From Clostridia bacterium (GTDB taxonomy: Bacteria > Bacillota > Clostridia > Christensenellales > UBA1242), in assembly GCA_017452445.1 (NCBI GenBank), contig JAFTMH010000002.1, positions 202,657 through 266,656 of the forward strand: a stretch of 64,000 nt of DNA. Reading direction: 5' to 3'. The notes beneath the pieces were generated by a model. It was given only the letters and a program-made list of their open reading frames with translations, was not told where the DNA came from and ran no database searches. This document shows, one piece after another, positions 4,551-41,388 of the stretch (position 1 is its first letter; the number at the start of each line of letters is the position of its first letter). The position numbers and the translations under genes were made by a program.

Positions 4551-4573
4551 AAAATGACAAAAAATCGAATAAA

Positions 4574-5939: not shown

Positions 5940-5968
5940 TTGACTTTTTTTGATAATTATAATATAAT
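5940..5968 (+). promoter_or_regulatory. candidate sigma-A promoter of the giant gene
   Basis: TTGACT (5940-5945), 17-nt spacer, TATAAT (5963-5968). It is about 150 nt upstream of ATG 6122. Confidence 0.55.
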
Positions 5969-6032
5969 ATACGCGTAAGATAAAACGCGAAAATATTTTA
6001 CAAAACGATTTACATAAAAATTGCAGATGACC

Positions 6033-6067
6033 GTTTCTCAAAAAGGAAGATTTGAGAAACCTTTTTG
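6033..6067 (+). promoter_or_regulatory. terminator-like hairpin inside the 5' leader of the giant gene
   Basis: 9-bp stem GTTTCTCAA (6033-6041) / TTGAGAAAC (6052-6060), 10-nt loop, then CTTTTTG (6061-6067). It lies between the candidate promoter and the RBS. Confidence 0.45.
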
Positions 6068-6121
6068 CGTATTGTAAATCTTTCGTGTTTTGAAAAATCC
6101 AATAAGCATAGGAGAGATGTT

Positions 6122-9100
6122 ATGGATAGAATGAAGCGCAGATTTATATTGGGAATTATGGCGAGCTTATGCTTGCTTGTTTCTGTGTTTGGTTTGGGAA
6201 TAGGATTGGCAAATGTGTCGGTCGGTGTTTCTTCGTCAATTTCACAGGAAGTTGAAAATGAAGATAATGCGATTGAAACGGGATCGGAGGAGATTGTTGA
6301 AGATTTGCCAATAGGTGCTAATGCTACAAAAGCTACATATACTTCTGCTGTGGGTAATGTTTCTGGATCCGTCACATATGATATGTGCAAATTTACATGT
6401 TCATCTGGCCCAATTGTTACATTGACTTCCGGAGTTGTTGTGTTTAAGAATTGCGAATTCTGGCTTGGGGGAAATATAACAATTGTTTCGCCTTCTTCTG
6501 GAACAAAAGTTTACTTCTACAATTGTATTTTCTATAGCACTTCGTCAACAACAGATCGCTCAATAGCTTTGTCTACATCAACTTCTACTGCTATTGTTCA
6601 AGACTGCTTGGGTGTTGGTGTAAGTTTTTCGGGTGTAAATGCTGCTCAAAGTAAATGCTATTATTCAAATAGCTGGAATGACGGTATGGCCATCGTTAAA
6701 GATGCTTCCAAATTTTTGACTTCAGGGGACGGACTTTGGACTGGAGCTTGGGATCTTGATGCAGCTTGGGCATATCGTGGATATAAAACAATGTCTAGTG
6801 GTACAGACACAGGTGTGGTTGTTGCTGAATTGGTTTTGATTCATTCAATCAACTCAACGGCGACAAAGTTGTTGAACCTTTATTCAAAAAACCCATACAA
6901 CGGCCAGGTATATCACATTATTTATGATGCATCTACCGCAGGCTCGATTTCAAAAACATCTATCGGATTTTCGTGGCCAGGTTACACCTTGTCAGGTTGG
7001 GCTTATGACTACAACGGAACTGGTTATGGCGAAAGCATTGCCGTTTCTGGGCCAGGGGATTTTTATGCTGTATGGAAAGCGAACGATATTACGGTAACTC
7101 TTAGTCCGGGATCTACATATTCGTCTGCTGGAACGGGATATATCTATTACACATTTGGAACTGCAACCTACTACAGCAATTCAACCCACACATCAACCAT
7201 TTCGACAATCACTTGTCCAACAAGAACTGGTTATACATTTAAAGGGTATTACACTGCATCTGGTGGTTCTGGAACAAAGTATATCGCCAACAATGGAGCA
7301 ATTGATAGTGGGCTTTCTGGTGATAATAGATTGGCGAGAAAGCAAACTGCAAATTTGACATTGCATGCATATTGGACTGCAAACTCATATACAGTTACGG
7401 CAAATGCTAACAGTGGAACTATTTCTTCTACATCAGGTTGGTCTGGAACTGGAAATACTGCAACAAAAAGCATTGCTTATGATTCTACCTATGCATCTTT
7501 CCCAAATGTGGCAAGAACTGGTTATACGCTTAAGGGCTGGTATACTGCATCAAGTGGTGGAACAAAAATAGAAACTTCAACAAAGATGACCACTACTAGT
7601 GCGCACACAATTTATGCACAATGGACAATAAATAATTATACATTGACTGCGATAAGTGAGTTGGGTGGATCTAAATTGACACCAAAAACAGGTTGGACTT
7701 CAAATGGTGATCAACAATGTTCTAAGGCTGTTGCATATGGCACACAATATTTCAACGATTTGCCTACAGCAACAAGAGCGGGATACACATTCAGAGAATG
7801 GACTTCTGATTCTGCTGGAAAAAATGCCGTTGTTACTACTGTAAAGATGGGGGCTGCAAATGCAACAGTTTATGCTCAATACACAGCTCACACATACAAG
7901 ATCAATCTTGTACAAAACAACTCTGCCTCTGATACGACATCGGTTTCGAATTTTAATGTAACTTACAATTCGGTCGTTTCAGTGCCTTCGGGGACAAAAA
8001 CGACAGCGACTAGAGTCGGATATGAGTTTCAAGGTTTCTATTCTGCAAGAAGTGGCGGGGTGTGGATAATTGGAAAAGATGGAAAATTTAAGGCTTCAGC
8101 ATCTGGATATACAGACGCAAATACTAAATGGATCAATGCTCAAACTACAAATGGTGCGACCATAAACCTTTATGCACAATGGACTGCTTATTCTTACACT
8201 ATTAGGTTTGACAAGAATGCTGGTTCTGGCACTATGGGCGATATGAGTGTCAAGTATGATCAGACAGTGACATTGTCTGCAAATGCGTTTACACGCACGG
8301 GATATTCATTTTTGGGATGGGCATTGACTTCTGGTGGAGAAAAAAAATACAACGATAAAGCGTCAGTTGTCAATTTAACATCTGTAAAAGATGCAACAGT
8401 GACACTTTATGCTTGCTGGACTGCTATTCAATATACTGTTACATTAAGTGCAAATGGCGGCAGTATAGCGCAAGGAGATGGTTGGATAGGCAGTGGAACT
8501 ACGGCGACAAAAAAAGTTTATTATGATTCGAATTATGGGACATTACCTGATAAGGCTCAAATGTTAAGAACGGGATATACTTTCAGCAGTTGGAGTACCG
8601 CAACAAGTGGCGGAAATGCAGTTACTGCAACAACACTAATGAAGGTTGCTGCAGATCACACTATTTATGCTTTGTGGACACCAAACAAAACGACCGTTAC
8701 GCTTTACAAAAATGATAAAGCTGTTTCAGGTGGTGGTGGCACCGTAACAACTCTTACATATACATATGATTCGACTTCAAGGTCGCCTTCAACTTTTACA
8801 AAACCAACAAAAACAGGACACACATTGACTGGTTATTACACTGCTGAGTCTGGTGGTACAAGGGTGCTTGATGCCGAAGGTGTTTTGCTTGCAAGTGTAA
8901 CAAACTTTTCAAATGCATCAAAGGCATGGCAAAGTACAAAATCAACCGTTTCTCTTTATGCACAATGGACACCAAACCCATATTCAGTAAAATTTAATGC
9001 AAACGGTGGATCTGGTGGTTCGACAGTTGCTTATGTGAAGTATGGTGTTGGTTGGTATAAAGAGCAAGCCTGCACAAATGCGTTTACTCTCTCAAAACCA

Positions 9101-12100
9101 ACAAGAACAGGTTACACATTTACCGGATATAGAAAGAGTCAGTCGGCATCTTCCGAAATTGTTTTTGAAGCATCTGGTGCTGCAGCATCTGGCTCAACAT
9201 TGTTGTTTACTGCAAATGATACAACAATTTATGCACATTGGTCAGCAAATCCATACGAGGTCACAGCAAATGCCAATGGTGGAAGCATTGCACAGACAAC
9301 AGGTTGGACTGGATCTGGAAATACTGCCAAAAAGACGGTTTATTATGATTCTCAGTATAGTACACTTCCAAGTGCTTCAAGAACTGGTTATTCATTGACA
9401 GGTTGGTATACATCAACTACTGGTGGATCAAAAATTGAAACTACAACAACTGTAAAAACTGCTGCGGCTCATACAATTTATGCACGATGGTCTGCACTTT
9501 CATATACACTCACTGCAAATGCAAACTCAGGAACAATCCCTTCAACAACGGGTTGGACTGTTGCGTCAGGTGGTGCGAGTGCAACCAAATCGGTGACATA
9601 CGATGCGACATATGGCACATTGCCAACCCCTACAAGGACAGGTTACGAATTTGGTGGTTGGTATACATCGGCTACTGGCGGAAGTGCGGTTGCTGCGACA
9701 ACAACTGTAAAAACTGCAGGCAATCACACAATTTATGCACATTGGACTCCAAAAGAATATACGCTTACATTTAAATACGATGCAGATGCAAACTCTGCAA
9801 CAACCAATGATGTTGTGACGCATTCTTCTGTTAAAATCAAGTTTGGTGCTGCACTTGCAAATGCGGGCTTTACATCAAGAACGGGATATACCTTTAATGG
9901 TTATCAAGTTTCTCTCAACAGTGGGGCTTATTTGTTTAACGCTGCTGGTGTGGCACAAGTTGTAACAGGCTATACAACAACAGGTGCTGTTTGGAACAGA
10001 GATGGTGGTGCGACCGTTTGGGGCAATTATACCGAACACACTTATTCAATCGTGTTTAATGCAAATGGTGGAACCGGAACAACAGCTTCAATCACAGGCA
10101 TCAAATATACAGATGTAAAAACTCTTCCAACTTGTGGATTTACAAAAACAGGTTATGACTTTGTGGCATGGAACACTAGTGCTGCAGGAAATGGAACGAA
10201 ATATACAGCTGGTGCATCAGTTTCTAAATTGACATCTACAAACAATGGCACATTTACGCTTTATGCGACATGGGCAGAACATTCTTATGTTATCCAATTT
10301 AACGATGGACTTGGAAACAAGCTTGTCAGTGCTTATTTGGTTTACAACAAAACATGGAGCAAGAGTGCTGGTGGTGTTGGACCTGTTTCAACATTCAGCG
10401 AAATCCAAGCGCTTCCTACAAGGACGGGATATACATTTGCCGAATTCTACACAGGTACAGGCGGCACAGGCACAAGAATTACTGAAAGTGCCGGAAGATT
10501 TACTGCTTCTTCTTTGACATTTACAGCTCAAAACACAAATGTTTATGCACATTGGAAGGCAAACACTTACAACATTGTTTTCAATGCAAATGGTGGTTCT
10601 GGCACAATGGCAAAGCAAACAATGACTTATGACACAGCTGCAAACTTGACGGCAAACGCATTTACAAGGACGGGATACTCATTCCAAGGCTGGTCAAAAT
10701 CTTCATCTGGAGCGAAAGAATATGGTGACAAAGCTTCAGTTAAAAATTTGGCTACAAGCGGCGAAATCACACTCTATGCCGTTTGGAAGGCAAACACATA
10801 CAATATCAAATTTGAAGAAGGTGGCACCGAACACGGTGAAACAATCACTCAACCTTCTATCACAGTGACATATGGCACTGCATTGAAAGGTATCACCATC
10901 AGCGTTGGTGCTGGAAAAACAGAATACAAGCTTGGACACAATTTTGCTGGATACTTTACGCAAGCAGGTTCAAGTGGATCAATGGTTTACAACGCAAGTG
11001 GTCAAGCAGTAAAAAGTGTTTCTGGCTACACAGATGCAAGTGGAAACTGGATCAAAGCTGCTGACACAACATTGTATGCTCATTGGACAACTGCTTTCTA
11101 TACAGTAACTTTGAACGCAAACAACGGAACTTTCTCAACTTCAAACACAAATGGTTGGACAATTGGTTCTGGAAACGGCAGTGCAACAAAGAGCATTGAG
11201 TTTGGCACTCAATACGGCTCTTTCCCAACAATCTCAAGAGCAGGTTATGACTTCCAAGGTTGGTGGACTGCAACAAGTGGTGGAACTCAAGTGACAGCTA
11301 CAACTTCTTTCTTGCAAGGTGCAACTCAAACACTTTATGCAAGATGGACAGAACATACTTACACAATCACTTACACCAAAAATGCAACTGATGCACAAAT
11401 TGACAAGACATCAGAAAACTTTACAATCTTGACAAGCATCACAATGGCGACAACGACTCGCACAGGTTATCAAATGAGTGGTTGGTTGGTTACTTCAAAT
11501 GGTGGAAACTGGGGAGTTGTAAACTCTCAAAAATATTCAAACGGACAGTCAGGCATTAAGGGTATGTATGGAAATGTAACTCTTACTGCACAATGGACTG
11601 CAAACACTTACACAATTGCTTTCAACGCAAATGCTGGCACAGGCACAATGAATTCGGTTACTGCAAGATATGACCAAACAGTAACATTGCCAGCAAACAC
11701 ATTTACCCGCACAGGTTATTCTTTTACTGGTTGGGCAAAGAGTGCTGGTGGCACAAAAGTTTACAACAACAGTGCACAAGTTTCAAACTTGTCATCTTCA
11801 AACAATGCTACAGTGACACTTTATGCTTGCTGGACAGCAAAAACTTATACTTTGGTGTTTGACTCAAATGGTGGCAGTGCAGTTGCTTCTGTTTCGGGCA
11901 AGGTATACGACACAACTTATGGCACATTGCCTTCTCCAACAAGAGCAGGTTATGACTTCCAAGGTTGGTTTAACACTGAAACATCAAACAACGGATCTGG
12001 CACACTCGTAAGATCAGACTCTAGATTCAACACAACAACTGCAACATTTGCAAATGTCGGCACAGCTGGCACAAATGCAACTGTTTATGCACAATGGAAA

Positions 12101-33100: not shown

Positions 33101-36100
33101 GATGCATCACAAGTCACAATCTTTGTTGATGGAGAGTTGTTCCCATACGAAGAAGAAATGATTGTTTATTACGATCAAATTGTGAGAATTTATCACACAT
33201 ACACAATTGAGGAAGAAACAAAATCTGCACTCAAGGGTGGTTATGACTTTACAAGTTTCAATCTTGGTGACGAAGTTCAATCAACAGGTGCGTTCTACGA
33301 ATTTATTTTCCACGGCGAGACTTTGGTTACTTTGGTTGCAACACCAAGAAATGACACTAAGTTTAGAGTTGTTTACAAACTCGAAAACATTGCTAGAGAT
33401 GGTTATGAAGTAGATGAAGAAATCATTGCAGAAGGCACAACAGACAAACTTGTGACTTATGACTATTTGATAGAACTTGGTTTGGTGCGCACTTACACAG
33501 GTTTTGATTATTCGACATTTGTTGATGAAAACGAACAAGAAGAAATCTTCATTATCTACAGCAATGACAATCCTGAAGGTTATGCAGTTGTTTGCATCAA
33601 ATATGTGAGATTGCACTATAGTTTGATCCTCAACACATCAGTTGGAGTTCAAATATTTGTGCCAAATGTAAAAGACGCAAGCACAATCACACAACTTCCA
33701 GATCAATATCGTGTATACTATCAAGCTTCATTTGAATTGCAACTTGATATGTATCCAGGTTATAGATTCCTTGATTTTGTGGTTACTGCACAAGAAGCAC
33801 AAGGCTCAGAAAGTCTTGGCACAACAGAAGCCGTTCAACTCGAATTGAGAGAAGATGGATATTATTATGGCGAAAAACTTATTATGAGTTTTGTAGCAAA
33901 CGAAGAAACTGGATATTATGATGTGATCATGGCGCCTTATGACATCACAATCACAACTCAATCCGAACCTATCGTTTACACATTTACATATCACAGATAT
34001 CTCAACGAAGAAGATGAAGAAACATTCAGTGAAGAAGTCACATTCAACACTGCATACACAATTTACTATCCTTCAAACATCAAAGAAGGTTGGTCAAAAC
34101 TTGGTTATGACTTCATTGGTTGGGCGACAACAAAAGAAGAAGCAATTGCACAAATCCCAGTTTACACTTATGATGAAACATTGGCAGATTTGCAATTTGA
34201 ACATTATCTTGATCCAAACGATACAGAACTTTGGGCTGTTTGGATCCCTGCAGACAACACTTACAAGATTGAATATTATTTTGAAAGTGTTGACGGAACA
34301 TACAGTTTGAACGAAGACAAAACTGCCGACAAGATTGGCAAGACAGATTCGACAGCAAATTATGAATTGCTTCCAGTGGAAGAAGTTGTTGGATTTGAAT
34401 TCTTCCCAGATCATGAAGGATCAGTTTTGAGTGCAAACATTGACCCAGCAGGTGATATGGTGCTCAAAGTTTACTACAAGCGTATTTGGTATGATGTGAT
34501 TGTAAATTATGACATCGGTATCGAATATGTTAGAGTGGCAGCAGGTGCAAACTCTACTGTTGAAGAAGAAACAACAGGCAAGATTGTTGTGAAAGTTAAA
34601 TTTGGTGCAAATGTAACTGTTTCATACAAAGAAAACCCTGGTTATACATTTGTTGAATATGTTGAAAAAACTCAAATGGGCGTTGAAGTTGACGGAACAT
34701 TCGTAATGCCAGCAGGCAATGTAGAATTTGATGCAATTTCACAACCAAACATTTATACTTTGACATTCAAAAACGGATTTAAGCCAGAGCTTGCAGATGA
34801 TTACACACAACAATATGTGTTTGCAACATATATGCCTTTGGAACCAAACAGATTTGTTAGACCTGGTTATACATTTATTGGTTGGGACATCACAATTGGA
34901 GAAGAAACAACTCGCTATGAAGATTGTCAATCATTGCTTTACAATCACCCAGACGATTTGGTAGCTATCGCAATTTGGGAAGCAAATCCAGATACACCTT
35001 ATGTGGTTGAATATTACACACAAAAGATTGACGGAACTTTCGAGTTGGCAGAAGCTGTAAACCTTGTAGGTAGAACAGACACAGAAATCACCGAAGAAAT
35101 TGTGTTTGCTGCTTACATCAACACTTCAATCAACAAACAAGGTTACGCATTCAGCCGTATGAGAGATGATGCTCCACTCATCAATGGTGACGGAAGCACA
35201 GTGACAGGAGTCGAATATGTTTTGGTTGATATGGATGTAAGATTTAGCATGTCAAAACCAAACACTGATCCACCAGAATTGGCGGCTGGTATTGACAATG
35301 TAGTTATCAACTATTTGGATCCTGAAGGTGATGTTGAAAACCAATTGGTTAACACAGAAGATATTGTTCCAATCAAATACACATCAACACTTAAAATCAA
35401 AGTGACAGCAAAAGAAGGATATCAACTTTTGAGAATTGTCATCACAACAGCAACAACAAGAATTGAATATTTGAGGACTGATGTTGGTGAAGACGGATTC
35501 TTTACTTATGTGGTGCCTTCAGAAAGCGTTACTGTAAGAATTGAAGTAGAACCTAAAGAATATGTGATCACATATTACAAAAACTTTAAAGAAGAAGGCG
35601 AATTTACAACTCAAAGAGTGAGATATCTTGAAAGAGTTGTGTTTAACGGTTACTTCTCTGAAACAGGCTATACTTTGCTTGGTTGGTCAACAGATCCATT
35701 GGCTACAGAAGCAGAATATCGCATCAATCATGTGCTTGAACAATATACTTGGACAGAAGATATTGCAATGCATGCAATTTGGCTTGAAAACGAATATACA
35801 ATCGCTTACAACTCAAACACTGCAGAAGGCGAAATTGAATCTGTTGTTGTCAAGTATAGTCAAGTATACAAACTTGCAAGTGCAAGTGCGTTTACAAAGA
35901 CAGGTTACAAATTTGTCGCATGGACAACAGACACTACAAACGCAAATCAAGTTGTCGAAGTGCCAGAAATATCACAAATTGAGGATAGAGGCATTTACAA
36001 AAACCTTGCTGATGGTGAATATTATGTGACAAAGATGGTGACAGGCACACTTGGCGATGACACTGTTGAATTGTATGCAGTTTGGACACCAATCGAATAC

Positions 36101-39100
36101 ACAATCAAATATGCTTATGATGAAAGAGAACAACAAACCCTTTCACTTGGCACATTCAAATATGATCAAACCTACAAACTCAGAGCATTTGAAGTTGTTG
36201 CTTGGACAAACAGAGGTTATGACTTTATTGGATGGAAATACACAACAGATGATGGCGAACAAATCAACATCTATTGTGAAGAAAATGACATTCCTGAAGT
36301 TACAAATCTTACAACACAAGATGGAAAGATCGTGATGTTGTATGTTATTTGGGGACTTGGAGACTCTCCATTTACAATCAGAATTTTGAAAGAAACTCTT
36401 GATGGTGTTTATGGCGAAACTGAAGGAAACTATATTGACATCACAGGAAACGAAATTCAAACCGAATCTATCGTGACCAGTGACATTGCTTACCACTACT
36501 TTGTGGCAGGCACAGAGTATGACAATATTCAAGGTTATACTTACAACAGAAACAGACAAGATTCTCAAGCAATCTCTGCTGTTGGAAACACAATCGTTAA
36601 GGTGTATTTTGCAAGACAATATTACAATTTGACAATCACTAAAAACGCAACAGTGACCGATGTCACACTTGTATCGTCTGGCACAAACACACATTATTTG
36701 ATCAGCAACACAACAAACGAAAGAGTTTATGCAGTTAAGTATGGCGACAGAGTAACTTTGGGCTTGAGTGAGGCCGAAGGTTACAGCGATGGATATTTTG
36801 AAGTTGACTTGGCAAACAGTGTTGAAGGAACTGTTTTGGAAGCTGACGGCAAATCATTGACCATCGGACCTGGCGACATTACAATCAAAGCAAATGCAGT
36901 TGCAAGTGGCGACACAATCTTTACAATCAAAATTTACAAAGAAACACTTTCTGGCGAATATCAAACACCTGCTTACACAACATATTCAACTGGCGCAACC
37001 GAGAGCGTAGTTGATGTTGATGCTGTGAGAGAACTTGTTGAAAACGAACCAGGATATGATTTCACAGGATTTAGTTTTGGATTTGTAGACGAAAATGTTG
37101 TCATTATGGGTAACGGACAAACCGTTGTCGGAGTTTACTTCACAAGAAACAGCTACAAATTGTCAACAAAAGCGACAAACTATCGTGCAGTTGTCAATAC
37201 GTCTGATGAAGCAAACTACAGATACGAAGCAGAAGCAAGCGTAACAGGAGTGCTCAACAGAGGTTACTCACTTGCAGAAGAAGATATCTGGGTTGAAGAT
37301 TTGGAAGGAAACAAACTCGAAGTTGAATTGTCTGTAACAATTGCTGAGCTTGGAAATGGAACAAAACAATACGCAGTGTTTATCAAAAACATGCCTGCAG
37401 CAGATGCAGTGGTTGTGTTTGCTTCAACAAACAACACAGACACCAAGTTTACTGTTGTTTATATGTTCCAAGACATAACTCTTACAAATTACCTTGAAGA
37501 TGTCAGATATCCTAGAGTGATTAAGACTGGCGAAACAGAACATGTTTTGACAAGAGAAGATATTGGCTTTGACGAACTTGTCGTAGATGGATTTAAGCCA
37601 TCACACAGTTCGATCGACGGCGAAATCGTTGAAATTCTTGGAGACGGATCTGTGATCGTTTACATCTACTTCAACAGAGATCAATTCATTTTGTCTTTGA
37701 CATTTGAAGATCCTATGAATGGTTTGATTGTAGACAGTCTTAGCGTTACTGGACATGGCATTCAAGAACTTACAACTTTGGAATGGTATGTATATTCAGG
37801 TCAAACTGTAACAATTGAGTTTGAACTTGATGCAGGATTCACATTTGGTGGATTTGAAGTCAACGGAATCAAGAGAGAAGAAACTTCAACAAGATTGAGA
37901 GTGGTGATCACTGATTCTGACATGGATGTAACAATCTATATCGTGGCTCAAACCGATATTGAATACAGAATTGAATATTACAGACAAGAATTGGTTGACA
38001 ACAAAGCATCTGACAAATACAACAGAGTTCACTATATCAACTTGCATGGCACAGCAAACGAATATCTCGCTCCAGAAGCATTCCTTGAAATGTATGTAGA
38101 AAACCTTGAATCAATCGAAGGTTATAGACCTGAAATGTTTAAGGGATTGAGATTTGACCATTATGAAGTTTCAATCAAGGGGCTTCCAACTGACCACCCA
38201 GTGGTTTCAGGTGATGGATCAACAATCATCAGATTCTATTACAACAGAATTTTGGTGAATGTTTCATTTGAATACGAAAGCGAGTTTACCGTAAATCATC
38301 TCGAATCACTTTCTGGTGATGGCGAGTATGCATATGGAAGCGAAGTGACTCTTGAAGCAAAAGCAAGACCTGGTTATGTGTTTGATCATTGGACAATCAA
38401 TGGACAAACAATTATGACTCCGACTTACAAATTTGCAATCAATCAAGAAGTTGACTATGTTGTCCTTGTTGGCACAAGACTTGGCGAAGCAGAATATACT
38501 CTCGAACACTACTACGAAATTTTGGGAGATTCTGGACACGAACTCAAGTATACCGACAAAAACAAAGGCACAACCGAATCTGTGATTGATGTTATGTCAG
38601 CGCTTAGAGAAGATCCTGGTTATTCATTCTCTTACTGTGAAAACGGTGCAGAAAACGCAATCATTATGGGTGACGGCTCTACGGTTGTAAGAATCTACTA
38701 TATTATCAACTATGTTGAATTTAAGGTTACATTCTCTGAAGGTGTAGAAAGTGTGCTTGTTGAAGGTTACGGCGATTCAAATTATCTTGAATTGTTGAAC
38801 TACAACGAATACACAAAGATTTACACTTACAGAGCAAAATACACAAAGAGATTGAGTTTGACTGTCGAACTTAAAGCTGGTTACAAGATGTTGGGTTGGA
38901 TCGTTGATGACAATCAACAACCAGAACCAAACTCAAATGTAGCTCGTGGCTTCTTGTTTGATGTTAGACCTGTTGACTTTGTGTTGACTGCTGTTGCAGA
39001 AACAAAGAAGATCGTGATTATTTACGATCCAAACAACAATATCTCAAGTGAAGTTATCGACAACGACGAAGTATTGTACAGAACTTATGCGATTTTGAGA

Positions 39101-39367
39101 GCAAACACATTTGAAAACGGAAACAAATTGTTCCTTGGTTGGGCTCTCAGCAACGATGGTGATGTTGCATTCTTTGACGGAGAAGAAATCTTTATCAACT
39201 TTGAAGATACATTGACTTTGTATGCTGTATGGCGCAATCAACCTGGCACAATGTGGTGGATCTGGCTTGTGGTTGGTGTTGTCAGTGCGTTGGGCATTGC
39301 CGTTGTGGTTGTGCTTATCATAAGAAAACGCAGAAAAGACAGAGCCAAAATCATGAGTAAACAATAA
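6122..39367 (+). CDS. giant (about 11,081 aa) secreted, membrane-anchored repeat protein rich in Listeria-Bacteroides (Flg_new) repeats; adhesin-like
   Basis: One frame stays open for 33.2 kb. Start is ATG 6122, 7 nt after GGAG in AGGAGAG. Signal peptide is MDRMKRRFILGIMASLCLLVSVFGLGIGLA. The recurring unit is (Y)T(I/V)xF(N/D)xNGG ... TR(T/A)GYTFxGW ... LYAxW. The C-terminal TM helix WWIWLVVGVVSALGIAVVVVLII is followed by RKRRKDRAK. Stop is TAA, and a strong terminator follows. Confidence 0.95.
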   Translation: MDRMKRRFILGIMASLCLLVSVFGLGIGLANVSVGVSSSISQEVENEDNAIETGSEEIVEDLPIGANATKATYTSAVGNVSGSVTYDMCKFTCSSGPIVTLTSGVVVFKNCEFWLGGNITIVSPSSGTKVYFYNCIFYSTSSTTDRSIALSTSTSTAIVQDCLGVGVSFSGVNAAQSKCYYSNSWNDGMAIVKDASKFLTSGDGLWTGAWDLDAAWAYRGYKTMSSGTDTGVVVAELVLIHSINSTATKLLNLYSKNPYNGQVYHIIYDASTAGSISKTSIGFSWPGYTLSGWAYDYNGTGYGESIAVSGPGDFYAVWKANDITVTLSPGSTYSSAGTGYIYYTFGTATYYSNSTHTSTISTITCPTRTGYTFKGYYTASGGSGTKYIANNGAIDSGLSGDNRLARKQTANLTLHAYWTANSYTVTANANSGTISSTSGWSGTGNTATKSIAYDSTYASFPNVARTGYTLKGWYTASSGGTKIETSTKMTTTSAHTIYAQWTINNYTLTAISELGGSKLTPKTGWTSNGDQQCSKAVAYGTQYFNDLPTATRAGYTFREWTSDSAGKNAVVTTVKMGAANATVYAQYTAHTYKINLVQNNSASDTTSVSNFNVTYNSVVSVPSGTKTTATRVGYEFQGFYSARSGGVWIIGKDGKFKASASGYTDANTKWINAQTTNGATINLYAQWTAYSYTIRFDKNAGSGTMGDMSVKYDQTVTLSANAFTRTGYSFLGWALTSGGEKKYNDKASVVNLTSVKDATVTLYACWTAIQYTVTLSANGGSIAQGDGWIGSGTTATKKVYYDSNYGTLPDKAQMLRTGYTFSSWSTATSGGNAVTATTLMKVAADHTIYALWTPNKTTVTLYKNDKAVSGGGGTVTTLTYTYDSTSRSPSTFTKPTKTGHTLTGYYTAESGGTRVLDAEGVLLASVTNFSNASKAWQSTKSTVSLYAQWTPNPYSVKFNANGGSGGSTVAYVKYGVGWYKEQACTNAFTLSKPTRTGYTFTGYRKSQSASSEIVFEASGAAASGSTLLFTANDTTIYAHWSANPYEVTANANGGSIAQTTGWTGSGNTAKKTVYYDSQYSTLPSASRTGYSLTGWYTSTTGGSKIETTTTVKTAAAHTIYARWSALSYTLTANANSGTIPSTTGWTVASGGASATKSVTYDATYGTLPTPTRTGYEFGGWYTSATGGSAVAATTTVKTAGNHTIYAHWTPKEYTLTFKYDADANSATTNDVVTHSSVKIKFGAALANAGFTSRTGYTFNGYQVSLNSGAYLFNAAGVAQVVTGYTTTGAVWNRDGGATVWGNYTEHTYSIVFNANGGTGTTASITGIKYTDVKTLPTCGFTKTGYDFVAWNTSAAGNGTKYTAGASVSKLTSTNNGTFTLYATWAEHSYVIQFNDGLGNKLVSAYLVYNKTWSKSAGGVGPVSTFSEIQALPTRTGYTFAEFYTGTGGTGTRITESAGRFTASSLTFTAQNTNVYAHWKANTYNIVFNANGGSGTMAKQTMTYDTAANLTANAFTRTGYSFQGWSKSSSGAKEYGDKASVKNLATSGEITLYAVWKANTYNIKFEEGGTEHGETITQPSITVTYGTALKGITISVGAGKTEYKLGHNFAGYFTQAGSSGSMVYNASGQAVKSVSGYTDASGNWIKAADTTLYAHWTTAFYTVTLNANNGTFSTSNTNGWTIGSGNGSATKSIEFGTQYGSFPTISRAGYDFQGWWTATSGGTQVTATTSFLQGATQTLYARWTEHTYTITYTKNATDAQIDKTSENFTILTSITMATTTRTGYQMSGWLVTSNGGNWGVVNSQKYSNGQSGIKGMYGNVTLTAQWTANTYTIAFNANAGTGTMNSVTARYDQTVTLPANTFTRTGYSFTGWAKSAGGTKVYNNSAQVSNLSSSNNATVTLYACWTAKTYTLVFDSNGGSAVASVSGKVYDTTYGTLPSPTRAGYDFQGWFNTETSNNGSGTLVRSDSRFNTTTATFANVGTAGTNATVYAQWKEKTLVVSFNGNGGTSSSASKSVVYNSAYGDLPTATRTGYTFKGWYTAATAGTNITKDSKVTATTDHTLYAQWTALRYQIKLSSQLTSGSLGDGWTEKIVYAEYDSATLYAAATGSSAAGEQKPTRRGYTFAGWYTAADGGMMIIKADATSLVSSASGYVTSGKWSRTATDVVTLYSQWTSNSYTITYNLNASDATFINAATSTQVYSTSAGVKLYGYRQVRRAGYTFSWKPSYAAGSEAASCPTWVNNTSLAVDASLTGVYGNVTLTAQWTAKTTNITLVLHNDGGQGPSSHTATYDQKVATIQAPASRPASVTTVAWRAGWTFQGYYTATEGAGSKLINADGTVVSAAVDGWLKTGGIWAWDGTVGSSQSTNSVDLHAHWTRNTYTLNYTMDMGISLVKITGSLNDGDKTSNGSVTVTFGQKVTVVATASVGFDISNFAGGLTPGPTASIAGTVSGKSSTITLTFDETLLGATNNVISNNTYYIAAKSIPQQVGYRVRYILQNAKGEYGTPSEAGTFTAAAGSTLTLDDVKAKVSAASTAGYTYASNKYYTHNNASAAGTNASTFMVEGDGTLIVVLYYSFNSYTITFDVGEGQALSSPPAVYNIHGYFKTSASATSWTANGILPTPIRTGYDFKGWKANSVGNWGTSVYNGGTSLTGKYGNVTLSAEWSAHVYTITLNNNDTLSYIYEKYATGWYSNSNATSSISNIAIPTRAGYTFEGYFTQKAGAGTQIIGSNGGILASNTTFTADATIFAHWTPKVFTVTFDGNVVDNSISITPGSKEITFAAVYGTLATATRTGYTLEGWYKEAACKNKVTASTVVDTADNHFLFAKWTPNKYLVKLNGNGGTVGTLSNITGMTGTASPLTATYDTTGNFTAVMTRAGYTFTGWSIDPIGDNTTGITQGAITGQGGTFTVTNTKIINLVPSGEANLYAQWSADYVEISLDLNADTGSTVPTILHTKIYAKTGSAYSEAVTDKNNPNTTKVGLISPERSGYTFAGWFEGKTTGSQVLPVTLVEGTYSSGAYRKTLYARWTANTYSITYAKNDGSGATYVDTVRATFDQDYTILTESNAKFDFFVTGHTFVNWATSPQGGTTYAPGVFTYTVPNNLTLYAIRNVNSYTLYYEANDARYQGTAELLAGKTDSEVYLYTASVDISARYKRLGYNFVSWNTQADGTGTTLTNANNKGLEATNGGIFRIYAIWEPGDVDVTVHHMTQTVGAAVAGDVAFSIADQTNYIENSAEVKKEKTGITLTPENLANYFKTIDGFTKTSTTVSNTNAYLVLYDGSLEIYLLYTRNTSTMQVQIGTGINSVSATGDAGRTLSASTLNGISTFENIFFGESVTVSAALKAGYHTPVFTVLENTIPAFANNTYSMPSTTAKLAVAATPGKVPYKIEIYLMTTAGAYLGSASEVLTEGLSATVDTELEINSTVYSKTGFTYDSTQANELKKMVAGDGSTTFKLYYSRNKYTFVLTASFNNVDATSIAPNTIKVNGTVVSATYSKEYYFEEQVVLSDLVTFSGYEYVGFDFAGQHTAENALTSKTFTMLSKQTDVKLYFKSKEYTISYSMNGGVNDSTNPQKYATQLTDQIFNLVNPTRAGYSFAGWTETFASATIAGPKLTISANAYGDFTLTATWTPITYTISYNTNGGTLAAGAPVSYNIESTTTLPTITKVGQSFMGWKATTVAGNWELDKVYANGYLLTGMYGNVVLTAVWQPNVYEIVFDGNQGDGTTTVEGLPPKAYIAYGSTQFYTGWTQSTYPNNVSGSVVSPIAKRNGYTFKGWYTSSTGGTQVITNLGALNAGVSGITSAAGNWSAAEGKTFYAQWTPNSIEVAFDVNVSTNYPTDNFNVTPATKTVTFNSTYGALATTTRTGYTFAGWYFDSTCKSQAVETTQVVNHEAHTLYAKWNANTQTIVYTTTNVTVGASSPTSVKSHEANINATFTSNTGYSMPENVQVKVGGVLLTDGYTYTRGADYNSATLVIEKEYINASVEVVVPGVPGINDVTFNVTNVTAAGDATATSGVTYTATLHRVYGYHLPSTISVTVLGEAKTVGADYSYTISADQQTATIIIVGSKIIGPVVITAAGIAKDVVVTFNPNLGTVSTTTMTTKFNENYPTLPVPVRRGYAFGGWYTQAYAVDATPTTEAVTSSTKVTNEEAHTLYAYWISKTVSVRVQNLSGTSAEGNVMGTSTWTFTQSFKTGEIVQFAHDAKLDAYGTPLYSFAKYVKGTTWSGDTLTSYTITADDTEAGVQLEFRVCYAIQINLYAVTNGVALDASGGSVKTHDGGEVGATSTNSWAYGEVMSFTPEAIAEPGYTFEGWYTTQECTGDVVSTLAKPTLQFGTSGHLAYYAKFVSTPYTITYVLNGGAFATGFTPVEIYNVITKVTLPVEANVVKTGYTFVAWKENENLSGTAVTEISLGTIGNKTFYAEYTPNSYTISLDQNSATTDGTSSVVAVYEQTKSFAITAPQKVGYAFDGWSITRDGKDILIDDQGNLVANMTGYTTSDGRWQRAESVQLYAVWTVNSYAIQFTLDSSTRIAQITINDQVYTESGSALIVYGTKAEISIVPGVGYVIQAVKGGTNPSALENVGAIALDRTSFSYTIEKFNYVAAVNKGVAYYLDVQSREMRYTIAFNANGGVGTMENLDMEYHVDKALPTTSFVRTGYTFAGWATSSTGEVILADGATVTESLATTEGQEVTLYAIWSEHSYTLTFMGVHNAFDVKVAAADGNVYKTVSITSEANSIEGIKYSDIVVAGASGVGFTPAGLQLGSDIKGSDPSRVGYTWGVQSGATRHLYAITTDSSTAYFGGKSFSNHWSSTAVTTGQRTEGYAFAQLTSTKNGSVRVEVLWTANPYTITLDQNTATTEGTKSVVATYDSASLNVAISNPTKTGYTFRGWTSLRDGEIVVIDTAGHLVENVEGFTGANGIWKKAENATLFAKWTPNEYVVTFEPNGGTVDIATKTVVFDAAYGTLAVAQRIGYTFDNWYFEPAFTTTLTEETIVKTPANHTVYAKWIPNPDTPYTIYHYKESIGVENPSTSNPAHWDRPEVEVLKGVTDTMVTPAVKNYIGFVAPATQTILIKPDGTGEVHYYYTRLQYQLTLKAKFDGEVNPTLDINKVDLTIAGVANSQISAYQSNIDYGSEIVVSNMDLYPGYTYEGFVVERFVSSAWVTDADANIDSYLMTEFDTTIYLLFEGRDFVIELDFVEGTSIQQSPIEYSTKISNQVFALAPVVRPGYTFVEWAFDWKDATDHSTQTPAVATGNIELAANVYGDITLTAVWQPNTYTITYYPNSGTGNEVTDSVVFDSQYTIRPADLYYKTGYTFVGWNTLANGSGNEWTAGEEITWQVVGNVDLYAQWETIVYSIKFHGTGENVRGSMEDMTLDYDVAYNLTTNAFTRAGYIYKGWATEEDGELVYQDGQQVFNLTIKPNDVIHLYTVWEARTDTPYITNIYLMDKDGNYSASPTSVITKQGVTDTVIGFTTTATSVTMDAVRKRLETGEETHETSVYEYVGFSYDEAKTGITSDTNDITIKITLVDDGDGEVEEFSVISLYFARNKYTLTVNPNGGTYNETGAETVYNQYYQTTVEIADPVRIGHTFDGWERSANFHGVFENGVYTFNAGDDTLTAKWIVNRYKVVLNINDATFSNGTTSVENVNNITHASLVNGTITLYIDYGTKYQTLYTEEKGNTTVNYADFTSVNVSRLGYTFVGFYDRNIALGGTVDGATQITTETVFEYTGNDTVLYAFWTRNQDTPYVVNHYQEKKHIDNADISNSTHWDLVKQENLTGETDSTKTPAVETYKGFTSPTAQTIVIDARGTTVVNYFYTRNQYYVDISGSFAFDGTETIIEGLNTSVVDVLADTSLLAGASDFNKLVDFGTRITLSNLQVGGGWTFKGIVWNYTAVEDSETAVEGNVNPLLDIVVEEESQLEIVLKFEGNVYAIDYDLDHGTAENETQYQTSLNDRSITVNTPVRTGWTFMGWRHVWKGDDAHSSNLPTLTQVNDSSVLAILANTYGSIAITATWKANEYTITLNQNSADVEGTTSVVATYDSNTLSKAISNPRRTGYTFLGWAKTQNGNDLIIDVAGKLIANTDYTGENGIWQHVGDVELFAEWKVHKYTIKFHANTGAGTMADLQMTYNTAQTLTPNGFTKLGYDFTGWATSANGNVVYTDQQEVINLTSVDGDVLNFYAIWVARNDIEYSIEIYQMDTAGNYPETVEPIVRNDGTTDTNLRIEQITEGAKTTAISINEVTYSFAGFVVDTNLSTLGNINVNADGSALVKLYFIRNTYVLTIRAQAGTTVKVKEVARVDGTQLTMYFEEEFTLETILWEGYTWEGYSATGTPLLKLVADNMAAQTAQMGMGDAEITSQATIDSYKLTIKPNGGVYEGSESDIVIEQTYGSTYTVANPTRVGYTFMGWVVDPEANSNRLDAGVYTFGVGVNTTGVGDDTIIAQWKVNRYKVVLDLNDSKAGNGTTRAVTTIGTEVGGLIEMYVTYDTNYDAMYLQEEGGEPIAVEDFTDTVITRNGYRFVGFYTERNLLAANDNKGTQITNSTHFLTANDDTIIYAKWEYKLVNYTVEHYKANLGTYGDLDTTNSTLAKDEHGNDLVEVFQAYTDSTQTPAVKTFEGFTSPNAQSVVVDANGVTLVRYFYARNSYIFVLLAGNGVASVGASGTGVKLDATSTEVARRYDVQYDAEVSLTATNKTGYTLTGWDTASGIVIAENKFNMPAKLVNVTATAEPNRYKVVFDTNSTDDVTASQPVTNGKITLYAEFDSTWAVLYTNKQVTAGEQEVLFDALNPQRTGHTFNGWYTTAYEADGTVDLATRIYSTTGFATANDDTVIYANWTINTYKLTIDYRYFDNTEAKPTFERVLKFRESISVDSALIYGYTADFTNITIDSMPANDVEKTVTYNANKYNITYNLAKGKWSDGETPMTEYTIRDSIVFAQAERLGYTFVGWKVTSEYANLVDGNFVKDTIYTETSVNAGMYGNVDFEAQWEANRTTPYMVYLHKMNTVGGYDASGLSSEERRDGITDQYLETEINADLTIVTINEVAYSFDGFTIDTVTTGNISEILVQPDGSSQIHIYFARNTYTLTIYAQEGTTVKVKGDQVEDASTHTLYFEEEFALETILWEGYTWQNYVAGGTPLLVLATDKIGSQIVKMGMGDATVTSQAKINEYTLTINPNEGQYNASGEVCAVTQNYGSTYQLLVAGRVGYTFVGWKFTTQANAGRLVGDTYTFGIGVNTTGVGDDTITAQWKANRYEVVLNFNDSNFNVGSTAADISAITTNEGNKLVATNGLLSLYAIYDVSYAKLYVSDDETASNGAEYVTFADFAHPAVDRVGYEFVTFASSTEEDGEVVNSSTVCHTAGSVTIYAIWQVESYTLTIEKTLPKVSVAVENATEIAADKYTVVFDTTITLTATMDIGYHFVKWTEDEFDLSTSLELIYTYVQDNDTTITANVAPNTYEIAYHANTGVGSIQSTPATYDVEVVLSDGTGFTKLGYTQVGWECEGQSYDLADTVVNLTTQDNGVVTMMAVWRANTYNVSFETNNGSAVANTSATYDQAKPIEETTLRAGYRFLGWSTVNGKESNHTELTAEQLAGKDVTTYLIENNKANGIYLYNEVYYMFNLSAEHGGEVVVYAIWTPDYAPYRLEYYLEGLDGDYVLDTEIVETGLEIDRNSTTITDQFTETVVSIPQLTYYGFTLDLNNPNTILTGAVIGDGSLVLRVYYTRNTYSIDFIIPALGVDSVSATSEHEVDEDVFKYNSSVTVGVVQSKGYRLDGIVCGLLEVEAAELPYTFLLHEDMAFEVKVTALPFEYIVKYRFESLDDTTLYEENLALVTDKTKIDLVDVLIDYDKIADDIEDVAGFSYERFEGGIVKPVVDPGDQNLIVTIYYSRNYYSLALQLTTGISQLEAITDPLKVVEETENVAEGTKLYSVRYEARVDLVYDTEPGYAYGSWSDEIVVGEDPDWYIASMPSENLSIYMNGRTLPADVTIKYFFRDMADSKWVYDADEDQVVKHLYTASEIESVEGLGLKTYDGFTFSTFQTGVIVKGDGTSTLDVFYSRNSIQVSVSMTEGVASVRAFVNEEGGAYRLDFNFTEDGQFSLKYGATATLTYVLSTDGYRWVDFEGATQVGNAYTITAGIEDISVRAVAENKVYTITFYGYDTDVDVVTQQATYNRTVILTPNTFTRVGYTYKEWNTVADESGVVYTDQQEFNYLLTADLELHAIWSPIAYKVVYDGNMATGGEMTGHDEIFYDAPFTLKKNLYVRTGYTFKEWNRNADGTGESFADEQEGVVNLTSTAGETVVLYVIWNENTYTLQYNSNYTSVCEKEDVLSAAETYLYTENIAIKHADDLGYEVQGYTFVGWTVEIEGVETVVYADDILRSLTSTPNGSVIAHAIWEANKYIIKFNANTGIGEMEDVRATYDEPLNLPKATFTKIGYTFDGWNSKPDRTGDEYADEAEVINLAPEGEFVLYAQWKTITYTITYLANLEGFAGGFDGVEGETYTSTFTIEDEVHLVIEPFLSKIGHTLLGYTFEASEGNWQEVFSGDIDLNTLEDEILDVGIYGNVTLKAKWFVNSYDLTVVYNYQNGTTAAETVVQSIKYMQPYEVASPIITGYTADILVVEGIMDELGKTIVVTYIPNKYKITFDLNNAIGTGATTIEYTEAIVTYDSKYALATVEGVERGLVFPTRRGYDFVGWYFDQALTLLVVNNDTVKIVEDTTLYAKWQARNDTKFTVLYNFESLDGKSYEFKTEVPSLEGQGYTDTMVTEQMVVDLTGGALPTLAGFAYTHTIYASLDADVQAQINVYYSRSYFDLDLSTTIGITTFTASAQQQPDADQEETFYITNVGEGNYYVRFETTIILAYTIDNPGYEFVAYSSEQVDATSGQFDMIADRVEVLASAKPKPYTITFIGNNGATEDGDTTYLQSGTNIYRETIVLDATQFTRTGYTFAGWALTEEKADAREYDYADQAEFMLEVYSENVNLWAVWDPIPYKFYIEGTAGIDASQVTIFVDGELFPYEEEMIVYYDQIVRIYHTYTIEEETKSALKGGYDFTSFNLGDEVQSTGAFYEFIFHGETLVTLVATPRNDTKFRVVYKLENIARDGYEVDEEIIAEGTTDKLVTYDYLIELGLVRTYTGFDYSTFVDENEQEEIFIIYSNDNPEGYAVVCIKYVRLHYSLILNTSVGVQIFVPNVKDASTITQLPDQYRVYYQASFELQLDMYPGYRFLDFVVTAQEAQGSESLGTTEAVQLELREDGYYYGEKLIMSFVANEETGYYDVIMAPYDITITTQSEPIVYTFTYHRYLNEEDEETFSEEVTFNTAYTIYYPSNIKEGWSKLGYDFIGWATTKEEAIAQIPVYTYDETLADLQFEHYLDPNDTELWAVWIPADNTYKIEYYFESVDGTYSLNEDKTADKIGKTDSTANYELLPVEEVVGFEFFPDHEGSVLSANIDPAGDMVLKVYYKRIWYDVIVNYDIGIEYVRVAAGANSTVEEETTGKIVVKVKFGANVTVSYKENPGYTFVEYVEKTQMGVEVDGTFVMPAGNVEFDAISQPNIYTLTFKNGFKPELADDYTQQYVFATYMPLEPNRFVRPGYTFIGWDITIGEETTRYEDCQSLLYNHPDDLVAIAIWEANPDTPYVVEYYTQKIDGTFELAEAVNLVGRTDTEITEEIVFAAYINTSINKQGYAFSRMRDDAPLINGDGSTVTGVEYVLVDMDVRFSMSKPNTDPPELAAGIDNVVINYLDPEGDVENQLVNTEDIVPIKYTSTLKIKVTAKEGYQLLRIVITTATTRIEYLRTDVGEDGFFTYVVPSESVTVRIEVEPKEYVITYYKNFKEEGEFTTQRVRYLERVVFNGYFSETGYTLLGWSTDPLATEAEYRINHVLEQYTWTEDIAMHAIWLENEYTIAYNSNTAEGEIESVVVKYSQVYKLASASAFTKTGYKFVAWTTDTTNANQVVEVPEISQIEDRGIYKNLADGEYYVTKMVTGTLGDDTVELYAVWTPIEYTIKYAYDEREQQTLSLGTFKYDQTYKLRAFEVVAWTNRGYDFIGWKYTTDDGEQINIYCEENDIPEVTNLTTQDGKIVMLYVIWGLGDSPFTIRILKETLDGVYGETEGNYIDITGNEIQTESIVTSDIAYHYFVAGTEYDNIQGYTYNRNRQDSQAISAVGNTIVKVYFARQYYNLTITKNATVTDVTLVSSGTNTHYLISNTTNERVYAVKYGDRVTLGLSEAEGYSDGYFEVDLANSVEGTVLEADGKSLTIGPGDITIKANAVASGDTIFTIKIYKETLSGEYQTPAYTTYSTGATESVVDVDAVRELVENEPGYDFTGFSFGFVDENVVIMGNGQTVVGVYFTRNSYKLSTKATNYRAVVNTSDEANYRYEAEASVTGVLNRGYSLAEEDIWVEDLEGNKLEVELSVTIAELGNGTKQYAVFIKNMPAADAVVVFASTNNTDTKFTVVYMFQDITLTNYLEDVRYPRVIKTGETEHVLTREDIGFDELVVDGFKPSHSSIDGEIVEILGDGSVIVYIYFNRDQFILSLTFEDPMNGLIVDSLSVTGHGIQELTTLEWYVYSGQTVTIEFELDAGFTFGGFEVNGIKREETSTRLRVVITDSDMDVTIYIVAQTDIEYRIEYYRQELVDNKASDKYNRVHYINLHGTANEYLAPEAFLEMYVENLESIEGYRPEMFKGLRFDHYEVSIKGLPTDHPVVSGDGSTIIRFYYNRILVNVSFEYESEFTVNHLESLSGDGEYAYGSEVTLEAKARPGYVFDHWTINGQTIMTPTYKFAINQEVDYVVLVGTRLGEAEYTLEHYYEILGDSGHELKYTDKNKGTTESVIDVMSALREDPGYSFSYCENGAENAIIMGDGSTVVRIYYIINYVEFKVTFSEGVESVLVEGYGDSNYLELLNYNEYTKIYTYRAKYTKRLSLTVELKAGYKMLGWIVDDNQQPEPNSNVARGFLFDVRPVDFVLTAVAETKKIVIIYDPNNNISSEVIDNDEVLYRTYAILRANTFENGNKLFLGWALSNDGDVAFFDGEEIFINFEDTLTLYAVWRNQPGTMWWIWLVVGVVSALGIAVVVVLIIRKRRKDRAKIMSKQ
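6905..15711 (+). repeat. near-continuous array of about 31 Flg_new (Listeria-Bacteroides) repeats, each about 70-100 aa
   Basis: I counted the terminal ...(L/V/I)YAxW motif by hand in the translated protein. The array has one non-Flg_new interruption at about 13260-13860. Confidence 0.8.
21130..28250 (+). repeat. about 2.2-2.5 kb coding super-repeat (3 units) inside the giant gene
   Basis: The same order of modules recurs from about 21146, about 23340 and about 25790. Near-identical nucleotide patches exist, e.g. 25031-25084 vs 27437-27490 (52/54 identical). Confidence 0.7.
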
Positions 39368-39373
39368 AAAATT

Positions 39374-39403
39374 GAGTGAGGAGAATTCCTCACTCTTTTT
39401 TTT
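39374..39403 (+). terminator. rho-independent terminator of the giant gene
   Basis: Perfect 9-bp stem GAGTGAGGA (39374-39382) / TCCTCACTC (39387-39395) with loop GAAT, followed by T8 (39396-39403). Confidence 0.85.
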
Positions 39404-39489
39404 GAAAAGTTGCAAAAAATCGCAAAAAATATGTTGTTTTGTTTTGTTTTTTTGACAAAATGTTATAAACTACAAGAAGGAGGAACTAA

Positions 39490-40617: not shown

Positions 40618-40691
40618 TTAAAAAAGAAAAATTGTTCGATTTTGGTCGAACAATTTTCTTAATGCCAAAATTTGACTATGGAGAAGAGAAA

Positions 40692-41330: not shown

Positions 41331-41340
41331 AACAAACAAA

Positions 41341-41367: not shown

Positions 41368-41388
41368 TGCTTTTTATAAAAATTCAAA

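Follow-up and report, generated by a model that had tools for sequence, protein, structure and literature searches.

What would a bacterium with a small genome do with a protein of some 11,000 amino acids (aa)? This question is raised by a 64,000-nucleotide (nt) stretch of DNA (here called the window, to which all positions refer) from a Clostridia bacterium of the GTDB family UBA1242 (assembly GCA_017452445.1, contig JAFTMH010000002.1, positions 202,657 to 266,656 of the forward strand). An earlier note, made from the sequence alone, had singled out one gene in this window and described its product as a giant cell-surface repeat protein. Our analysis leads us to conclude that the giant protein is probably a Sec-exported, C-terminally membrane-anchored, fibrillar adhesin-like fibre whose distal N-terminal region would bind a ligand. 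We observed the open reading frame (ORF), its domain content, and its topology signals directly, as well as the synteny of the gene and its rapid divergence in relatives.

The coding sequence (6122-39367, plus strand, as are all features below unless marked otherwise) runs from ATG 6122 to TAA 39367 as a single stop-free frame of 33,246 nt that encodes 11,081 aa, as the earlier note had stated. The window contains no N bases. Across the gene, stops number 373 and 671 in the remaining frames of this strand, from which we conclude that selection keeps the coding frame open. The longest ORF called mechanically begins at TTG 6065, and the European Nucleotide Archive (ENA) gene call for the same gene on contig k141_1115072 starts at ATG 6131, giving a product of 11,078 aa; with any of the three starts, the signal peptide is retained. 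The protein has a mass of 1,213 kDa and a pI of 4.58, and its commonest residue is threonine (13.4%). The GC content at third codon positions (0.293) falls within the range of the neighbouring genes (0.245-0.348), and the gene is therefore native.

The gene also has candidate expression signals of its own, and here too we could find what the earlier note had listed. A promoter-like TTGACT-17-TATAAT element (5940-5968) agrees with the consensus at 11/12 positions and is a candidate by consensus match only. The sequence AGGAGAG (6110-6116), read as a ribosome-binding site (RBS), lies 5 nt before ATG 6122, and a terminator-like hairpin of 9 bp with five G-C pairs, followed by a T-run, lies 3' of the stop codon (39374-39403). 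The leader of about 150 nt between the promoter-like site and the RBS contains two hairpins, one at 5972-5989 and a second at 6033-6069 that has 10 bp and a CTTTTTG T-run and resembles an intrinsic terminator. That the second hairpin is an attenuator is speculation, and an Rfam scan of the leader (5700-6250) returned no family at threshold. As a side observation, the DNA before (5764-5808) and after (39417-39461) the gene shares an A/T-rich stretch of about 45 nt. The local alignment of the two flank stretches scores 36, against 20.7 +/- 3.0 in shuffles, and the exact 12-mer TGCAAAAAATCG occurs on both flanks (5767 and 39411); by itself, this 12-mer is no more frequent in the window than chance would give. 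The shared stretch may reflect a common promoter layout, or it may be chance.

Support for the assembly came from the gene itself and from independent contigs. No DNA repeat within it is longer than 78 nt, identity between repeats is 60-82%, and Tandem Repeats Finder detected no tandem array in the gene. Because these repeats are old and diverged, repeat collapse or mis-joining is unlikely. ENA contig k141_1115072 (ERZ28019339; 290,873 bp) matches window positions 1-13481 at 99.993% identity, and its 11,078-aa gene call is at the same position as the giant gene. In two sequencing runs, Logan contigs agree with positions 29490-50617 and 29490-48549 at 100% identity and span the last 9.9 kb of the gene. 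One Logan contig terminates 11.9 kb into the gene, which shows that short-read assemblies tend to break in genes of this kind, and catalogues built from metagenome-assembled genomes (MAGs) will therefore under-report giant genes.

The two ends of the protein define its likely topology. By inspection, residues 1 to about 30 (6122-6211) form a Sec-type signal peptide, MDRMKRR followed by FILGIMASLCLLVSVFGLGIGLA, with a Kyte-Doolittle peak of 2.48 and no lipobox. The protein ends in WWIWLVVGVVSALGIAVVVVLII followed by RKRRKDRAKIMSKQ. Within this sequence, we predict a transmembrane helix at aa 11044-11067 (MWWIWLVVGVVSALGIAVVVVLII; 39251-39322; hydrophobic peak 3.18) and a basic cytoplasmic tail of 14 residues, RKRRKDRAKIMSKQ, read from the sequence (39323-39364). 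A final Flg_new unit (aa 10964-11038; 39011-39235), detected with a protein-specific hidden Markov model (HMM), stands immediately before the anchor, a layout also present in orthologues. Over windows of 19 aa, hydropathy exceeds 1.6 in only three stretches: the signal peptide, the C-terminal helix, and a modest internal one (windows starting at aa 4058-4069, peak 2.08). The signal peptide and membrane anchor claimed in the earlier note are thus both seen by inspection and by hydropathy. No LPXTG-type motif (LPxTG, NPxTG, or similar) was found in the last 50 aa; the residues preceding the helix are NQPGT, and this position is variable in orthologues. CTERM sorting models stayed below threshold (Heimdall-CTERM, 13.4 bits with a cut-off of 24; VPXXXP-CTERM, 12.1 bits with a cut-off of 30). 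Pfam, which found only Flg_new and Flg_new_2, gave no SLH or other cell wall-binding domain and no known surface-anchor domain for the C terminus, where a transmembrane helix and basic tail are seen instead. The earlier note had seen no adjacent sortase, secretion, or chaperone gene, and none occurs within the 64-kb window.

Next to these ends, the dominant component of the protein is the Flg_new (Listeria-Bacteroides) repeat. Pfam was run on the protein as three overlapping pieces, and Flg_new (PF09479, curated cut-off 27 bits) scored 627.6, 433.1, and 184.7 bits on them, with 24, 15, and 7 stretches, or 46 in total, at E<=0.01. Besides it, Pfam reported one family, Flg_new_2 (PF18998), which attained its cut-off of 23.6 bits on two pieces out of three. 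With an HMM iterated on the giant protein, 79 Flg_new-like units were recovered (median length 79 aa), and 75 of these scored at least 15 bits. The earlier note had counted about 70 Flg_new repeats as the dominant module; the domain assignment is borne out well above the Pfam cut-off, and its count lies between those of the two methods. When 30 of the units were built into a profile, it matched 2y5p, the solved InlB B-repeat, at E 1.3e-7, together with five more chains of InlB.

Along the chain, the signal peptide is followed by an unannotated region of about 290 aa, 23 Flg_new (InlB B-repeat) units in unbroken succession (aa 323-2375; 7088-13246), a mixed zone (aa 2376-10958; 13247-38995), the last Flg_new unit, the transmembrane helix, and the tail. 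The mixed zone contains about 54 further Flg_new-like units together with two other modules, here called B and C, and spacers. Pairs of B and C are increasingly dominant toward the C terminus and dominate the last 1,000 aa or so of the zone. In total, the protein contains about 115 small modules. Pfam and NCBIfam detected no enzymatic domain in it, in agreement with the earlier note.

Module B is 78 to 113 aa long and lies in gaps between Flg_new units. Its consensus is D-x-x-Y-x-V-x-H-Y ... G-x-T-D ... G-F ... D-G-S-x-x-V-x-x-Y-Y-x-R-N-x-Y. We found 20 clear copies and one weak one, with searches giving 20-22 in all, so the count of about 20 in the earlier note stands. The first copy (aa 2486-2578) is at 13577-13855, and copies 2 to 4 are at 15719-16003, 16268-16510, and 21146-21385. 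Copy 5 (22427-22765) has an insertion that brings it to 113 aa, and copy 6 (23342-23581) was the source of an AlphaFold2 model with four strands and a predicted local distance difference test (pLDDT) score of 85.2. Copies 7 to 12 follow at 24674-24952, 25796-26050, 27083-27358, 29018-29281, 29519-29779, and 30047-30286, and copies 13 to 15 at 32282-32533, 33353-33622, and 34253-34495. The weak or partial copy (aa 9624-9700; 34991-35221; 14.9 bits) was left out of the copy alignment. Copies 16 to 20 are at 36362-36628, 36911-37156, 37439-37690, 37955-38257, and 38486-38719.

The earlier note had likened this module to MucBP or internalin B-repeat modules. Membership in MucBP did not hold: seven single copies of module B gave no Pfam match, including PF06458 (cut-off 23 bits), even at E<=10; the whole protein gave no PF06458 match at E<=0.01; and no NCBIfam model matched the B-rich segment. 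Nor did the internalin alternative, since no relation between module B and Flg_new was detectable (hhalign probability 1.2-1.5%). What did emerge is a remote signal. In a search of 177,635 PDB sequences with a 63-sequence profile (A4), the top matches, all with subthreshold E-values, were 7yl4_A 273-331 (E 0.13), Ruminococcus bromii Amy12 9qfa_A 848-916 (E 0.17), and 2kyw_A (E 0.38). The matched regions of 7yl4_A and 9qfa_A are clear Pfam MucBP domains (E 2.7e-15 and 1.8e-7). Because MucBP domains rank first and second among 177,635 sequences and are aligned over most of the domain, a remote relation between module B and MucBP is suggested. Separately, the first profile search of the PDB had returned only designed WD40 proteins through summed weak repeat matches, which we judged spurious. 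Foldseek with the AlphaFold2 model of copy 6 gave no match below E 0.6; the weak matches were mostly NUDIX and pilin domains, and neither 7yl4 nor 9qfa was among the 50 best. NUDIX is counted among the beta-grasp derivatives (PMC1949818). The NUDIX-type matches of the predicted model would be compatible with a MucBP/B-repeat-like fold and prove nothing. By sequence, therefore, module B is best described as a remote MucBP-like module and not as a member of PF06458.

Module B is also widespread. Its alignment as a query gave no match in a word-indexed protein database. A full HMMER scan of 1.84 billion cluster representatives found it in 5,363 proteins at E<=1e-3 and in 452 at E<=1e-30. The best 150 of the 5,363 are mostly 1,000 to 7,000 aa long, with up to 50 copies in one protein. 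In seven of these proteins, Pfam reported Flg_new, Flg_new_2, DUF6273, or a lectin domain together with a papain protease, and nothing over the B units. Their names in the source data are generic or wrong ("VWA domain-containing," "LPXTG-motif cell wall-anchored," and "carbonic anhydrase"). Because a module found in more than 5,000 protein clusters has no Pfam or NCBIfam model, many large gut surface proteins are still partly unannotated and some poorly named, and a family model would improve their annotation.

Usually directly after a module B comes module C, which is about 79 to 119 aa long and present in about 15 copies. Of the aligned copies, that at 24953-25207 is representative. Further copies are at 16004-16267, 23582-23875, 27359-27610, 29282-29518, 29780-30046, 30287-30550, 33623-33979, 35222-35560, 36629-36910, 37157-37438, and 37691-37954, with candidate copies at 13247-13576, 19661-19978, and 33059-33352. 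Comparison of module C with Flg_new by hhalign gave a probability of 47% (E 2e-4), and Pfam Flg_new_2 touches 3 of the 15 copies at E>=0.016. We tentatively describe module C as weakly Flg_new/Flg_new_2-like in sequence. The earlier note had placed Ig-like spacers between the B copies; no Big or Ig family matched, and the module that follows B has the affinity just given. Three spacers carry no family assignment: aa 3901-4082, made of two units of about 90 aa (17822-18367), aa 4159-4270 (18596-18931), and aa 4697-4844 (20210-20653). The Pfam scans of the three large pieces reported nothing besides Flg_new and Flg_new_2 in them, and the first and third also had no NCBIfam match.

At the other end of the chain, the unannotated N-terminal region (aa 31-322, about 290 aa; 6212-7087) is the candidate distal head. 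It has no match in Pfam, in NCBIfam, or, with the N-terminal 330 aa as a word-index query, in a database of 5.8 billion proteins. Of the 27 cysteines of the giant protein, six fall within motifs of the xNCxF type (FKNCEFW and FYNCIFY are examples) between aa 89 and 179. Structure modelling suggests that this region is possibly a right-handed beta-helix, which is a lead and not a result.

We then compared the locus across relatives. In each of 15 related MAGs, a gene 72-85% identical to the diaminopimelate (DAP)-dehydrogenase-like neighbour of the giant gene has an ORF with Flg_new and module B directly upstream. In most of them, this ORF takes up the 10-kb flank completely, which sets a lower bound of about 3,200-3,300 aa on the length of those orthologues. 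The orthologues end alike, in a last Flg_new unit, WW(I/L)W, a transmembrane helix, and a KRRR-type cluster, often followed by (I/M/L)MSKQ or a close variant. Their identity is only 26-47% in the final 700 aa, versus 72-85% for the neighbour gene. The giant gene is therefore syntenic and fast evolving in relatives, and a divergence well above that of the neighbour is a pattern typical of surface proteins. A survey of relatives for orthologues and length variation, proposed in the earlier note, has thus yielded syntenic orthologues in 15 MAGs and, as to length, lower bounds. A homology search with the C-terminal 400 aa returned only fragments of 233-698 aa.

Three relatives depart from this arrangement. 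What looked like a short orthologue in one (L087) is actually a frameshifted fragment, and another (L090) has a scaffold gap at the position of the giant gene. In L093, where the neighbour gene is 82% identical, the position (L093 1-5322) holds a different ORF of at least 1,774 aa with a C-terminal transmembrane segment and neither Flg_new nor module B. This suggests replacement of one surface protein by another at a conserved locus.

How might such a protein work? Export, surface display, fibre geometry, and an adhesive role can be predicted from sequence as follows. The N-terminal signal peptide would send the 1.2-MDa chain out via Sec, and the single C-terminal transmembrane helix would act as a stop-transfer anchor, with the basic tail of 14 residues remaining in the cytoplasm and about 11,000 residues lying outside. 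The small beta-rich modules, about 115 in all (about 75-79 InlB B-repeat/Flg_new, 20-21 remote MucBP-like, and about 15 Flg_new_2-like), would form an extended stalk. At 3-4 nm per module, the fibre would be roughly 0.35-0.45 um long. At its far end, well away from the cell, the stalk would carry the cysteine-bearing N-terminal region, which may be a beta-helix and is the likely ligand-binding head. Nearer the membrane, further contacts with glycans may come from the MucBP-like modules. We favour a fibrillar adhesin because the length, threonine richness, tandem stalk, predicted anchor, and anchor-distal annotation gap fit the published definition. Large length and a tandem-repeat stalk are both present (11,081 aa and about 115 modules), and the source of that definition lists Flg_new among stalk domains and describes beta-solenoid heads at the N terminus (PMC9210967).

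Several observations weigh against this conclusion. Neither Pfam nor NCBIfam recognised an adhesive domain in the giant protein. The anchor is a plain transmembrane helix and not a recognised wall-anchoring signal. The single-sequence AlphaFold2 model of the N-terminal region has a mean pLDDT of 47.8 and reaches 53-75 only for aa 60-180 or so, where it has many short strands. Its top Foldseek matches are mostly right-handed beta-helix proteins, including phage tailspikes, PL3 pectate lyase, K1 capsule lyase, and the adhesins Ag43 and Hap, and all are nonsignificant (E>=0.1). Finally, the middle 16 kb of the gene (13482-29489) is covered elsewhere only by the length of the 11,078-aa gene call. 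Given these caveats, we still consider a membrane-anchored adhesive fibre the probable reading.

The same fold matches admit a fibrillar enzyme, in which the N-terminal beta-helix would be a small PL3-like polysaccharide lyase or depolymerase on a stalk, degrading glycans or cell walls of a host or partner and not just binding them. The PL3 pectate lyase matches reach a Foldseek probability of 0.90 (target TM-score 0.47, root mean square deviation 3.5 A, 133 columns), phage tailspike depolymerases and the K1 capsule lyase are also among the best, and module B stands beside a papain-family protease and a lectin domain in another protein. In addition, Flg_new-stalked putative enzymes have been described (PMC9210967), and giant genes elsewhere have been linked to cell wall degradation (West-Roberts et al., bioRxiv 10.1101/2023.11.21.568195). 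However, the model is of low confidence with every fold match at E>=0.1, Pfam and NCBIfam contain no lyase, hydrolase, or other enzymatic family that matches, and beta-helices are common in pure adhesins too, as Hap and Ag43 in the same list illustrate. We regard an enzymatic head as improbable.

A protein that is membrane anchored, acidic (pI 4.58), threonine rich, repetitive, and conserved across its clade could instead be an S-layer-like component of the envelope, a coat that covers the cell and does not project from it. Its mass of 1.2 MDa is far beyond the usual size of S-layer proteins, however, and Pfam found no SLH or other wall-binding domain. One transmembrane anchor and a linear array of small modules suit a fibre better than a lattice, and the rapid divergence suits an interaction surface, so a coat seems to us quite unlikely. 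It would be most surprising if the gene were a product of faulty assembly, or a pseudogene in decay that happens to read as a single ORF. The sequence does come from a metagenome assembly, a Logan contig breaks inside the gene, the L087 relative is frameshifted, and the middle of the gene has the limited coverage described above. Yet the coding frame has no stops where other frames have hundreds, the repeats are too diverged in DNA to collapse, an independent 291-kb ENA contig has a gene call of the same length, both ends are matched at 99.99-100% identity, and the gene is conserved in synteny. An adhesive fibre tethered by its C terminus is thus the reading that we carry forward.

The genes around the giant gene are of a housekeeping kind. 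Upstream are nrdD, nrdG, dut, and a ZupT-like gene; downstream are the DAP-dehydrogenase-like gene, tmk, a hydrolase, ppa, and gatCAB, and then a GH77 enzyme and others. The ZupT-like ORF is intact in the window (4881-5741, minus strand; NCBIfam PRK04201, E 1.6e-33; ENA contig k141_1115072 13579-14352), over which the ENA record calls two short plus-strand ORFs (119 and 111 aa) instead. Exact look-ups of the ZupT-like and dut products gave no match, probably owing to other start codons or the opposite strand having been picked by the gene caller. Further downstream, the AT skew drops to -0.358 at 42001-44000, far outside the rest of the window. Two minus-strand features lie here, the 5' part of a hydrolase-like gene of 510 aa and an ORF of 193 aa that has no family matches. 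At 58168-60127 (minus strand), a 218-aa protein with two Big_2 domains adjoins a 433-aa ORF that has no Pfam match, and the two may be a small surface-protein pair. The GC content falls to 26-28% in the last 4 kb. Upstream of the window, positions 1-9238 of ENA contig k141_1115072 contain four consecutive plus-strand genes (at least 1,328, 480, 248, and 628 aa) with no Pfam match on record; these form a further group of large proteins in this small genome that lack annotation.

Why would a lineage like this maintain such a gene? The GatB encoded in the window is 98% identical to that of a Candidatus Caccovivens sp. MAG, and we take the bacterium to be a member of this candidate genus. Candidatus Caccovivens is GTDB UBA11517 in the family UBA1242 of the Christensenellales, and its type species has a 1.1-Mb genome with 34% GC (PMC8035907). 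Genomes of UBA1242 range from 0.67 to 1.6 Mb and lack many biosynthetic pathways and standard transporters, and the organisms are predicted to be obligate symbionts or parasites (PMC12306168). If the genome is similar in size, at about 1.1 Mb, the giant gene would take up about 3% of it. Among structures through which UBA1242 cells might contact the cells that they are predicted to depend on, a 1.2-MDa surface fibre that is conserved, syntenic, and rapidly diverging stands out as the most obvious candidate. By analogy with epibiotic bacteria of the candidate phyla radiation and with Omnitrophota, one can picture an attachment device, in which about 3% of the genome would be spent on one fast-evolving fibre of about 0.4 um that tethers the cell to the specific host cell or partner microbe that supplies its metabolites, and in which the MucBP-like module would serve as a glycan-binding repeat, so far without a name, that is widespread in gut Firmicutes. 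This fuller picture is speculative and, as a whole, rather unlikely to be right. Bacteria of this family occur commonly in animal guts, are uncultured, and are predicted to live at the expense of other cells; the giant fibre gives a concrete target for their study.

Finally, how does the giant protein compare with known systems? The earlier note had called proteins of this size rare, which they are; this one is not unprecedented. Clostridia proteins of 10,000-30,000 aa with the Listeria-Bacteroides repeat have been noted in mammalian gut metagenomes, with adhesion as the proposed role (West-Roberts et al. 2023, bioRxiv 10.1101/2023.11.21.568195). The giant protein therefore belongs to an already reported kind, with the same size class, taxonomic class, gut origin, dominant repeat, and proposed role. 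However, that mention is brief and gives no architecture; the UBA1242 lineage, C-terminal transmembrane anchor, second repeat, and synteny are not described there. In the UBA1242 literature, as far as it could be searched, we found no mention of the gene.

At the level of single modules, the main repeat belongs to the same domain family as the Listeria monocytogenes InlB B-repeat (2y5p/2y5q), far above the PF09479 cut-off. InlB, however, has one B-repeat beside leucine-rich repeat and GW modules, whereas the giant protein has 75-79 copies and neither of the other two. Module B resembles the MucBP domains of Lactobacillus Mub-type proteins, of 7yl4, and of Ruminococcus bromii Amy12 (9qfa) in length and in the common pattern Y-x-V-x-Y ... 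G-x-T ... GF/GY ... DGS ... YY, and the way it pairs with another module is reminiscent of the Mub repeat, which has two domains. Other megadalton, repeat-built, surface-attached fibres are Staphylococcus aureus Ebh (about 1.1 MDa) and Marinomonas MpIBP, but their repeat folds, anchors, and export routes differ, making them analogues and not relatives. Periscope proteins are built on near-identical DNA tandem repeats, whereas here identity is 60-82% over at most 78 nt and Tandem Repeats Finder gave none. Giant genes of the Omnitrophota type have SecA DEAD helicase domains and numerous transmembrane regions; here Pfam found no SecA domain, and hydropathy showed only the three stretches given above.

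The closest general match is with the fibrillar adhesins and fibrillar adhesin-like proteins of Firmicutes (Monzon et al. 2021/2022, PMC9210967), with which the giant protein shares its length, threonine richness, stalk, and anchor-distal N-terminal gap, along with a putative surface anchor. It differs from them in having no recognised adhesive domain, no LPXTG or known anchor, and about ten times the typical length. Taken together, these comparisons place the giant protein within a known kind, to which it adds an occurrence in a genome-reduced, probably partner-dependent lineage, a conserved synteny combined with fast divergence, a transmembrane anchor with a basic tail, and a widespread MucBP-like repeat that has no family model.

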